Virus record (IMG/VR): IMGVR_UViG_2563367003_000006
Source: a virus
Taxonomy: Duplodnaviria; Heunggongvirae; Uroviricota; Caudoviricetes
Direction: 5' to 3' (one strand)
Length of the DNA stretch: 25,778 nucleotides
The position numbers were made by a program, and so were the translations under genes. The first letter of the stretch is position 1; every line of letters begins with the position of its first letter. This document shows positions 21,668 to 24,139 of this stretch, piece after piece. The notes beneath the pieces are model-generated. The model was not told the origin of the DNA, did no database searches, and was given only the letters and a program-made list of their open reading frames with translations.

Positions 21668-24139
21668 ATGAGTAAAGTCTTTATTTGCGCCGCTATTCCT
21701 GACGAACTGGCAACAAGGGAAGAAGGCGCTGTGGCTGTAGCCACAGCCATTGAAGCTGGCGACGAACGCCGTGCTCGAGCAAAATTTCACTGGCAATTCC
21801 TGGAACATTATCCGGCTGCTCAGGACTGCGCTTATAAATTTATTGTCTGCGAGGATAAACCTGGCATACCCCGCCCTGCCCTCGATTCATGGGATGCTGA
21901 ATATATGCAGGAAAACCGCTGGGATGAGGAGTCTGCTTCTTTTGTCCCGGTTGAGACTGAATCCGATCCGATGAACGTCACTTTTGACAAGCTGGCCCCT
22001 GAAGTACAGAACGCTGTCATGGTTAAGTTCGACACATGTGAAAACATCACCGTTGATATGGTTATTAGCGCACAGGAATTGTTGCAGGAAGACATGGCAA
22101 CATTCGACGGACATATCGTTGAAGCGTTGATGAAAATGCCAGAAGTTAACGCCATGTATCCGGAGCTTAAGTTGCACGCCATTGGGTGGGTTAAGCATAA
22201 ATGTATTCCTGGTGCTAAATGGCCCGAAATTCAGGCAGAGATGCGCATCTGGAAAAAACGTCGCGAAGGTGAACGCAAGGAAACCGGAAAATACACGTCT
22301 GTTGTTGATCTCGCCCGCGCCAGAGCCAATCAACAGTACACTGAAAATTCAACAGGAAAAATCAGCCCGGTCATTGCTGCCATTCATCGCGAATACAAGC
22401 AGACATGGAAAACACTGGATGACGAACTGGCCTACGCTCTCTGGCCTAGTGATGTGGATGCCGGAAACATTGACGGCAGCATCCATCGCTGGGCAAAAAA
22501 AGAAGTTATCGACAACGACCGCGAAGACTGGAAGCGTATCTCGGCATCAATGCGCAAACAGCCTGATGCCCTTCGCTACGACCGCCAAACTATTTTTGGC
22601 CTTGTCCGTGAGCGTCCGATCGACATTCACAAAGATCCCGTAGCACTGAACAAATATATCTGCGAATACCTGACGACAAAGGGCGTGTTTGAGAATGAAG
22701 AAACAGACCTGGGCACTGTTGATGTTCTCCAGTCATCAGAAACACAAACTGATGCAGTGGAAACTGAGGTATCTGATATCCCAAAAAATGAAACCGCGCC
22801 GGAAGCTGAACCATCTGTAGAGCGTGAGGGGCCGTTCTATTTCCTCTTCGCAGATAAGGACGGAGAAAAATACGGTCGCGCAAACAAACTCTCTGGTCTG
22901 GATAAGGCACTGGCTGCTGGCGCCACTGAAATCACAAAAGAAGAATATTTTGCCCGAAAAAATGGCACATACACGGGCTTACCGCAAAATGTAGATACCG
23001 CTGAAGATTCAGAACAACCAGAGCCGATAAAAGTTACCGCTGACGAAGTAAACAAAATTATGCAGGCAGCCAATATCAGCCAGCCTGACGCCGATAAGTT
23101 GCTTGCTGCATCACGTGGTGAATTTGTTGAAGGGATTAGTGACCCGAATGATCCGAAATGGGTTAAGGGGCTCCAGACCCGCGATTCTGTGAACCAGAAC
23201 CAGCATGAATCGGAACGGAACTACCAAAAAGCGGAACAAAACAGTCCAAATGCGTTACAAAACGAGCCAGAAACGAAACAGCCTGAACCAGTAGCGCAAC
23301 AGGAAGTGGAAAAAGTCTGCACCGCCTGCGGTCAGACCGGCGGCGGCAACTGCCCTGATTGTGGCGCGGTGATGGGCGACGCAACATACCAAGAAACATT
23401 CGATGAAGAGTATCAGGTTGAAGTTCAGGAAGATGATCCGGAGGAAATGGAAGGCGCTGAACATCCACACAAGGAGAACACTGGCGGCAATCAGCATCAC
23501 AATAGCGATAATGAAACTGGCGAGACGGCAGATCACCCAATTAAGGTGAACGGTCATCACGAAATCACATCCACCAGCAGGACGTGTGACCATCTAATGA
23601 TCGACCTTGAAACCATGGGAAAAAATCCTGATGCCCCGATCATCTCAATAGGTGCAATATTTTTCGATCCGCAAACCGGAGATATGGGACCGGAATTTAG
23701 TAAGACTATCGATCTGGAAACTGCTGGCGGAGTCATTGATCGGGACACCATTAAATGGTGGCTTAAGCAATCACGCGAAGCGCAATCTGCCATTATGACC
23801 GATGAAATCCCGTTAGATGATGCACTGTTACAATTGCGAGAATTTATCGACGAAAACTCCGGTGAATTTTTTGTTCAGGTTTGGGGAAATGGAGCCAACT
23901 TCGACAACACGATTTTGCGCCGTTCATACGAACGGCAGGGGATCCCCTGCCCGTGGCGTTACTACAACGATCGCGATGTACGCACAATCGTTGAGCTGGG
24001 GAAAGCCATAGACTTCGATGCCAGAACGGCTATTCCATTCGAAGGTGAGCGCCATAATGCACTTGATGACGCCCGTTACCAGGCAAAATACGTTTCAGTT
24101 ATCTGGCAAAAACTGATCCCGAGTCAGGCTGATTCTTAA
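21668..24139 (+). CDS. Large exonuclease: unknown N-terminal region, acidic linker with CxxC...CxxC zinc ribbon, C-terminal DnaQ-like DEDDh 3'-5' exonuclease domain
   Basis: ORF 21632-24139; preferred start ATG 21668 (gaggt upstream). Exo I MIDLET (D658, E660 in track numbering), Exo II [13 protein letters not shown] (D758), Exo III [9 protein letters not shown] (H808, D813). Zinc ribbon [16 protein letters not shown] at 23320-23366. Confidence 0.8.
   Translation: [823 protein letters not shown]

Follow-up and report, generated by a model that had tools for sequence, protein, structure and literature searches.

The window analysed here is the 25,778-nucleotide stretch of IMG/VR record IMGVR_UViG_2563367003_000006, a Qin-type lambdoid prophage adjoining rspB. 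It contains an intact ydfE-type gene (21668..24139, + strand) that encodes an 823-residue mosaic exonuclease, and this protein is a RecE-type linker carrying a DexA-type nuclease. Sequence comparison makes a three-module architecture nearly certain: an N-terminal YdfE_N module; a linker shared with RecE, predicted to hold a helical domain, an acidic segment and a zinc ribbon; and a DEDDh nuclease. The biological role of the protein is much less certain. The reading favoured here, to which we give an even chance, is that the intact ydfE product is an exonuclease for 3' DNA ends, built on a RecE-type scaffold and produced when the prophage is induced, that serves phage DNA-end metabolism. The original prediction, made from the DNA letters, had proposed a RecE-like scaffold with a swapped nuclease domain. 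Its observation is confirmed, and its interpretation is upheld subject to two corrections: RecE-like sequence makes up just the middle third of the protein, and the family had been catalogued before. The finding is partly anticipated by literature from 2025, and a new principle is not yet evidenced.

A DexA-type nuclease on a RecE-type linker

The gene model rests on the list of open reading frames (ORFs), on the RefSeq annotation of an identical region (WP_000048342.1, '3'-5' exonuclease') and on a full-length match to PHROG 2082. Translation starts at the ATG at 21668, with a GAGG 9 nt 5' of it and in agreement with the RefSeq start, and the stop codon ends at 24139. The residue numbering of the original prediction, which gave 835 residues, arises because a TTG lies 12 codons upstream of this ATG. 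A protein 100% identical to the ydfE product is encoded by phage PhiR42_1, a complete 48.7-kb phage genome from ECOR13 with lambda-like structural genes.

The C-terminal module (residues 642-813; 23591..24106, + strand) is assigned by Pfam, by a PDB match and by alignment with T4 DexA. It matches PF16473, the Rv2179c-like / T4 DexA family, with E=2.4e-67 and 226.5 bits against a cutoff of 27, over profile positions 2-177 of 177, which is far beyond chance; PF00929 (RNase_T) gives a weak match over the same stretch. The DEDDh motifs are MIDLET at residue 644, FDNTIL at 745 and HNALDD at 796. Together, these place D646, E648, D746, H796 and D801 in alignment with DexA D7, E9, D119, H186 and D191, so that all five catalytic residues are accounted for. 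No PD-(D/E)xK family is matched in the intact ydfE protein by Pfam. The profile comparison that the original prediction had proposed for this domain thus goes to DEDDh, and its placement of three DEDDh motifs in the C-terminal ~180 residues is borne out. As judged from these matches, the domain is a DEDDh 3'-5' exonuclease and not a PD-(D/E)xK enzyme.

The only relative of solved structure found by sequence is T4 DexA itself (8KEL/8KEN, E=1.5e-6), a 3'-5' DNA exonuclease (PMC12153337). DexA shares the DEDDh fold family with the ydfE domain. In contrast to the latter, which forms the C-terminal quarter of 823 residues, DexA is a stand-alone protein of 227 residues with extra loops. Outside the catalytic residues, DexA W152 corresponds to Y766, D169 to A780 with D782 and D784 close by, and the tetramer residue D90 to D718, in a part of the alignment that is gapped.

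The middle module (residues 262-627; 22451..23548, + strand) is defined by BLASTP against Rac RecE, by the NCBIfam RecE equivalog PRK09709, by an AlphaFold2 (AF2) model and by composition. It comprises a helical domain (residues 245-345), with AF2 helices at 247-338, followed by an acidic linker rich in D and E. Aligned with residues 278-592 of Rac RecE (866 residues, from NC_000913), it is 39% identical over 366 columns (E=2e-61). The final ~155 residues of this stretch are ~80% identical to Rac RecE, including a CxxC-x7-CxxC zinc ribbon read from the sequence (residues 551-565; 23318..23362, + strand). The ribbon is nearly identical in Rac RecE and is found in a subset of relatives only. A second landmark, at residues 481-491 (23108..23140, + strand), was located by a regular-expression match across relatives: the pattern A/S-x-K/R-G-E-F/Y-I/V-x-G-I/V-S/T is common to the linkers of RecE-type, DEDDh-type and Rad52-type proteins.

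The similarity to RecE stops at the boundary of the RecE nuclease, because the alignment ends at RecE residue 592 and the PD-(D/E)xK domain of RecE (PF12684, residues 615-850) starts at 615. Consistent with this, PRK09709 is matched only at positions 271-600 of 877, with 281.6 bits against a cutoff of 1269. The ydfE protein carries neither PF12684 nor the N-terminal domain of Rac RecE (PF06630, residues 2-178) by Pfam, and a tblastn search of the window with the RecE nuclease domain gave no match. Residues 1-260 (21668..22447, + strand) instead form the N module, Pfam YdfE_N, an ordered alpha/beta plus helical region that is unrelated to PF06630 and has no fold relatives. The precomputed Pfam labels of the family are YdfE_N (PF27430), YdfE_C (PF27432) and PF16473. 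The resemblance that had been suggested between the acidic zinc-ribbon segment and the middle of Rac RecE is therefore homology (E=2e-61). In the pairwise alignment of the N-terminal part with Rac RecE, as originally proposed, significant similarity is confined to residues 262-627; the description as a RecE-like scaffold with a swapped nuclease holds for these residues and fails for the first ~260, which are YdfE_N and not PF06630.

Rac RecE (exonuclease VIII) is among the closest known counterparts. Each gene occupies the same operon position, being the final large one of the early-left group ahead of xis and int, and the middle regions of both proteins have a helical domain, an ASRGEFV(E/D)GIS motif, an acidic linker and a CxxC...CxxC zinc ribbon. 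They differ at each end: RecE has PF06630 where the ydfE protein has YdfE_N, and a 5'-3' PD-(D/E)xK domain where the ydfE protein has a 3'-5' DEDDh domain. In addition, recT follows recE, whereas no such gene follows intact ydfE.

Cassette exchange among relatives

The N-terminal 640 residues were searched exhaustively against 50%-identity representatives, and the long members were typed by phmmer and Pfam. The family is narrow, because this search yielded only 247 clusters at 50% identity. Among the typed representatives, the N type (RecE_N or YdfE_N) and the C type (PD-(D/E)xK, DEDDh or Rad52-fold) vary independently. PF06630 (RecE_N) occurs with PF12684 in RecE and P0234, and with PF16473 in P0128, P0142 and P0242; YdfE_N occurs with PF16473 in the intact ydfE protein, and with PF12684 in P0131 and P0198. 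Either N type can also lack a Pfam nuclease altogether (P0126, P0129 and others). One example is P0128, in which a Rac-type PF06630 N-terminus is joined to a DEDDh domain 99% identical (tblastn) to that of the ydfE protein, making it a true RecE with a swapped nuclease. A further member, P0201 (703 residues), lacks a nuclease domain: its PF06630 and linker run directly into a RecT domain (PF03837). It may have arisen by an in-frame deletion that fused recE to recT, or be one more cassette variant of natural origin.

The protein of phage 813R8 illustrates how identity changes from module to module. Its identity to the ydfE protein is 19% in N, 39% in M1, 96% in M2 and 99% in C. The ratio of nonsynonymous to synonymous substitution (dN/dS) is 0.09-0.15 in the C domain, 0.14 in N and about 0.1-0.3 across alignable modules, and the catalytic residues are kept across lineages diverged to dS > 1. 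The abrupt shifts of identity between modules, together with these ratios, argue for recombination at the module borders and for purifying selection. Relative to RecE, the data show, at the level of sequence, that the block formed by the PD-(D/E)xK domain and recT has been exchanged for a DEDDh cassette, with the exchange point in the conserved linker.

The DEDDh cassette is common. At a coverage of at least 80%, its DNA is present in 4048 of the 5426 complete E. coli genomes (~75%), at 8098 places and in up to 7 copies per genome; DNA of the Rac recE nuclease domain is present in 1730 of the same genomes (32%), making the DEDDh cassette more than twice as common. A single protein cluster at 90% identity contains 23,183 sequences, and full-length forms of 816-831 residues dominate among the matches listed. 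The best 120 homologue matches are all near-identical E. coli proteins, and the diversity described above came from the 50%-identity representatives. The K-12 copy is the pseudogene b1577, whose first 256 residues are 100% identical to the intact protein before IS2E follows. This matches the description in the original prediction of a short remnant disrupted by an insertion sequence (IS). That the DEDDh form has never been studied may perhaps be because it is missing from K-12.

The DEDDh nuclease goes together with the absence of an annealing partner from the locus. Pfam identified no annealing protein among ten other ORFs of the window. A tblastn panel was made up of three RecT proteins; Bet, Exo and Gam of lambda; Erf and Abc2 of P22; Sak4 and single-stranded DNA-binding protein (SSB) of HK620; the Rad52-like protein and SSB of epsilon34; the nuclease domain of RecE; and the Rad52-fold domain of relatives. 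It likewise gave no match of any kind in the window, and none in the 48.7-kb PhiR42_1 genome. The view that no RecT/Bet/Erf-like gene lies in the window thus stands. The result extends to 80 IMG/VR contigs with the DEDDh cassette (70 with YdfE_N, 7 with RecE_N and 3 cut), where an annealing protein, Gam, Abc2 and SSB were found in none by tblastn within up to 8 kb on each side; these loci are closely related in the C-domain and are not 80 independent events. A broader sample comes from the ydfE protein, P0128, P0122, P0142 and P0242, which represent different 50%-identity clusters, and from phage 813R8: in all six DEDDh-type contexts the exonuclease is followed by xis and int with no annealing gene. 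Among PD-(D/E)xK-type loci, RecT comes next in two of three (P0131 and P0198); in the third, P0234, the next gene encodes 271 residues with no Pfam match.

The junction between the RecE-like middle and the DEDDh domain carries a Chi octamer, GCTGGTGG, at codons 635-637 (23571..23578, - strand). It reads CCACCAGC on the coding strand and lies ~10 codons before DEDDh motif I. The octamer is conserved in position in the divergent P0122 and P0142 genes (dS > 1, with differing flanking codons) and in phage 813R8 (loci L005, L009 and L010); P0128 misses it by 1 nt, and P0242 lacks it. The junction Chi may act as a hotspot at which recombination exchanges cassettes, or may merely reflect a codon constraint on an S/T-T-S peptide. 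The window as a whole holds 7 Chi sites (at 5106, 10403, 10455, 10988, 11045, 16637 and 23571) against 0.58 expected from shuffles, and PhiR42_1 holds 6. Two pairs, 10403/10455 (+) and 10988/11045 (-), each ~50 bp apart, lie around and within a ydfU-like gene. In a survey of lambdoid phages, 22% have no Rec module and are Chi-rich (PMC12315714); the Chi-rich window, from a phage without Gam or Abc2, fits this class.

Occurrence of the same linker and scaffold with an opposite-polarity nuclease, a Rad52-fold domain or RecT speaks for the scaffold as a functional unit in its own right. Such natural chimeras offer a means to probe its function. RecE/RecT is a main recombineering tool, and the function of the first ~600 residues of RecE is unknown (PMC11611040); the sole hint is the gain in linear-linear recombination obtained with full-length RecE. 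A more general proposal, which we regard as doubtful, would make the RecE/YdfE N-terminal and linker region a delivery platform that is fused interchangeably to DNA-end effectors (5'-3' nuclease, 3'-5' nuclease or Rad52-type annealing) in enterobacterial lambdoid phages. The DEDDh form, the commonest in E. coli, would then define an annealing-protein-independent pathway, either Chi/RecBCD-linked recombination or end-processing, or else nuclease-based exclusion, and the boundary Chi would drive exchange.

Proposed role and competing explanations

If intact ydfE serves phage DNA-end metabolism, its action likely involves the following: production of the protein once DicA repression is lifted; removal of nucleotides, most likely from DNA ends with a free 3'-OH, by two-metal catalysis; and positioning or tethering of the nuclease at its target by the scaffold. 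The protein would act in a phage that has neither an annealing protein nor an anti-RecBCD function, and such a phage presumably depends on host RecBCD-Chi and RecA.

A related published setting is that of the lambdoid recombination genes. Lambdoid Rec modules can include DnaQ-like 3'-5' nucleases, as in epsilon34, and 'sporadic' DnaQ-type genes occur 'very near int', outside the Rec modules (PMC12315714, Genome Res 2025). The ydfE gene fits the sporadic class: it is not packed with annealing, SSB or anti-RecBCD genes midway along the early-left operon, which is the arrangement that marks a Rec module. Stand-alone lambdoid DnaQ-like nucleases are likewise early-left-operon genes and are 56-60% identical to the C-domain. 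They differ from the ydfE protein in having ~180 residues and no scaffold. One of them, epsilon34 gp34 (56% identical), lies between SSB and Abc2, beside a Rad52-family gene with which it is packed, and is treated as a Rec-module nuclease (PMC12315714). In phage 1720a-02 (L103), the stretch 3498-4070 indicates that stand-alone copies exist in both positions, in the Rec module and near int. The same survey names as 'RecE-2' those RecE relatives that have no nuclease domain (PMC12315714). These probably correspond to the nuclease-less YdfE_N/YdfE_C scaffold proteins (P0126, P0129 and others), which share N and M1 with the ydfE protein; they differ in having no DEDDh domain, and many end in a Rad52-fold domain instead.

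The architecture itself is catalogued in RefSeq as '3'-5' exonuclease', in PHROG 2082, and in Pfam as YdfE_N, YdfE_C and Rv2179c-like. An annotated family with known function would have told against the original prediction; none emerged, because RefSeq, PHROG 2082, Pfam and PMC12315714 give no function. Its suggestion that the intact protein may be largely uncharacterised holds as to experimental papers, none having been found, with the qualification that the family is annotated.

Several points weigh against a role in phage DNA-end metabolism. The literature found contains no functional study of ydfE and no experiment on the intact protein, whether biochemical or genetic. A RecE-like role in promoting recombination is not obvious, because 3'-5' exonucleases usually inhibit homologous recombination (PMC12315714). 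The gene adjoins int and is not in the mid-operon position of a Rec module, and the same source is cautious about such 'sporadic' genes. Whether the substrate is DNA or RNA is not readable from the sequence, and the Pfam family is named after an exoribonuclease. The function of the scaffold is unknown even in RecE, and its N module resembles no known fold. Finally, experiments on other DEDDh proteins, EcD (PMC12153337) and TONDO (PMC13344964), point to antiviral defence.

This last point leads to the main competing explanation, which is possible without being probable: a defence or exclusion nuclease directed at the nucleic acid of superinfecting phage, with the N-terminal part as an auxiliary domain. 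Its target could be DNA containing 5-hydroxymethylcytosine (5hmC), as for the EcD-like HREX system, or the 3' ends of RNA-phage genomes, as for TONDO. The structure of DexA has been solved, and its E. coli homologue EcD degrades T4 DNA and protects cells (PMC12153337, NAR 2025); TONDO proteins, which are DEDDh exonucleases of prophages, other mobile elements and plasmids with variable auxiliary domains, defend against the RNA phages MS2 and Qbeta (PMC13344964, 2026 preprint). That DexA is the closest solved relative of the ydfE domain would agree with such a function, as would the absence of an annealing partner. Most E. coli genomes keep the gene intact, frequently in more than one copy, and purifying selection acts on it, which fits a benefit to the host; DicB, from the same operon, is reported to shield the host bacterium from phage (PMC6832061, PMC10448788).

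The setting and the details of the protein fit defence less well. The gene lies in a DicA-repressed lytic operon and not in a position expressed in the lysogen, and the scaffold is otherwise joined to recombination domains. DexA Trp152, which recognizes 5hmC, is Tyr in the ydfE protein, and the counterpart of D169 is ambiguous. EcD and the TONDO proteins are short, TONDO candidates having been selected at <500 residues, and the likeness of the ydfE protein to both is drawn from their published descriptions. The residue number A78 given for EcD (HAK9828821.1) is at odds with the aligned stand-alone homologues of E. coli and Salmonella. Identity with a catalogued defence protein was rejected, as PADLOC gave only a weak match, to a CRISPR-associated DEDDh model (E=1.8e-5).

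An RNA substrate is unlikely. On this account, the protein would work as a 3'-5' exoribonuclease and not on DNA, for example on transcripts of the phage or host, or in processing the 3' ends of small RNA (sRNA) or mRNA from the dicBF operon. The Pfam family does take its name from the exoribonuclease Rv2179c, RefSeq often labels the protein '3'-5' exoribonuclease', and two DEDDh enzymes, ISG20 and EcTon, act as exonucleases on RNA. The only solved relative by sequence, DexA, is instead a DNA exonuclease, and both the scaffold and the alternative cassettes (RecE nuclease, Rad52-fold and RecT) are DNA-recombination modules. The same operon yields DicF, which is processed from a polycistronic mRNA, yet this processing is already credited to RNase III and RNase E (PMC10448788).

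It is similarly improbable that the ydfE protein is a RecE analogue whose annealing protein is supplied in trans, by RecT of a co-resident Rac prophage or by a scaffold-Rad52 fusion, so that the two formed a two-component recombinase resecting with opposite polarity. A linker and zinc ribbon in common with RecE would suit this arrangement, and so would genome content: several such prophages often share one E. coli genome, with up to seven cassette copies, 32% of genomes carry recE-recT, and scaffold-Rad52 fusions exist. Against it, an annealing gene in cis is found at none of the 80 loci and is missing from the complete phage genome, and the 5' overhangs that would result are not the usual substrate of single-strand annealing recombination. 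In addition, Muyrers et al. reportedly found in 2000 that RecE interacts with RecT through the C-terminal part of RecE, the part that is replaced in the ydfE protein.

That intact ydfE is a decaying, functionless remnant of prophage mosaicism is highly improbable, even with a pseudogene in K-12 and many defective Qin-like elements: full-length forms dominate among the matches listed, with one cluster of 23,183 sequences, the gene persists in the complete phage PhiR42_1, all catalytic residues are conserved to dS > 1, and dN/dS of about 0.1 in every module, together with length conservation, leads us to reject a pseudogene reading.

Should the ydfE protein prove to carry out 3'-end resection without an annealing protein, or to be a defence nuclease, a common and unexamined activity would be added to E. 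coli prophage biology.

Operon setting and other features of the window

The proposal that the protein is made on induction draws on its place in the early-left (dicBF) operon. The genes are arranged as dicC and then, pointing the opposite way, dicA, ydfA, ydfB, ydfC, DicF, dicB, ydfD, intact ydfE, xis and int, with ydfE as the final operon gene ahead of xis and int. By annotation, dicA (19524..19931, + strand) encodes the repressor of this operon. DicA represses dicBp, and derepression occurs through the antirepressor Rem, through stress, or, in some cells of a population, spontaneously (PMC10448788). Scanning for promoters and terminators showed none belonging to intact ydfE alone on either side of it.

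Upstream within the operon lies the DicF sRNA (20973..21024, + strand; Rfam RF00039, 76.7 bits). Directly upstream of intact ydfE is ydfD (21384..21575, + strand), from the annotation of the identical region at locus L001, whose coordinates run 501 higher. Directly downstream are the excisionase (24212..24463, + strand; ORF list and annotation) and the annotated integrase (24498..25778, + strand), which forms the prophage end adjoining rspB. The flanking genes named from the DNA letters, ydfD and an excisionase-like gene, thus agree with annotation.

Two ORFs of 111 residues each, at 20635-20970 and 21000-21335 (- strand), lie antisense between ydfC and dicB, flanking DicF. They are annotated as hypothetical proteins in PhiR42_1, have no Pfam matches and are probably not genes.

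The late region contains an IS insertion at 5610-6823, marked by transposase ORFs and by an ALIL pseudoknot, an IS3-family frameshift element, at 5891-6007 (+). Locus L001, near-identical elsewhere, does not have this insertion. A further transposase sequence, an ISNCY-type remnant, lies at ~13963-15276.

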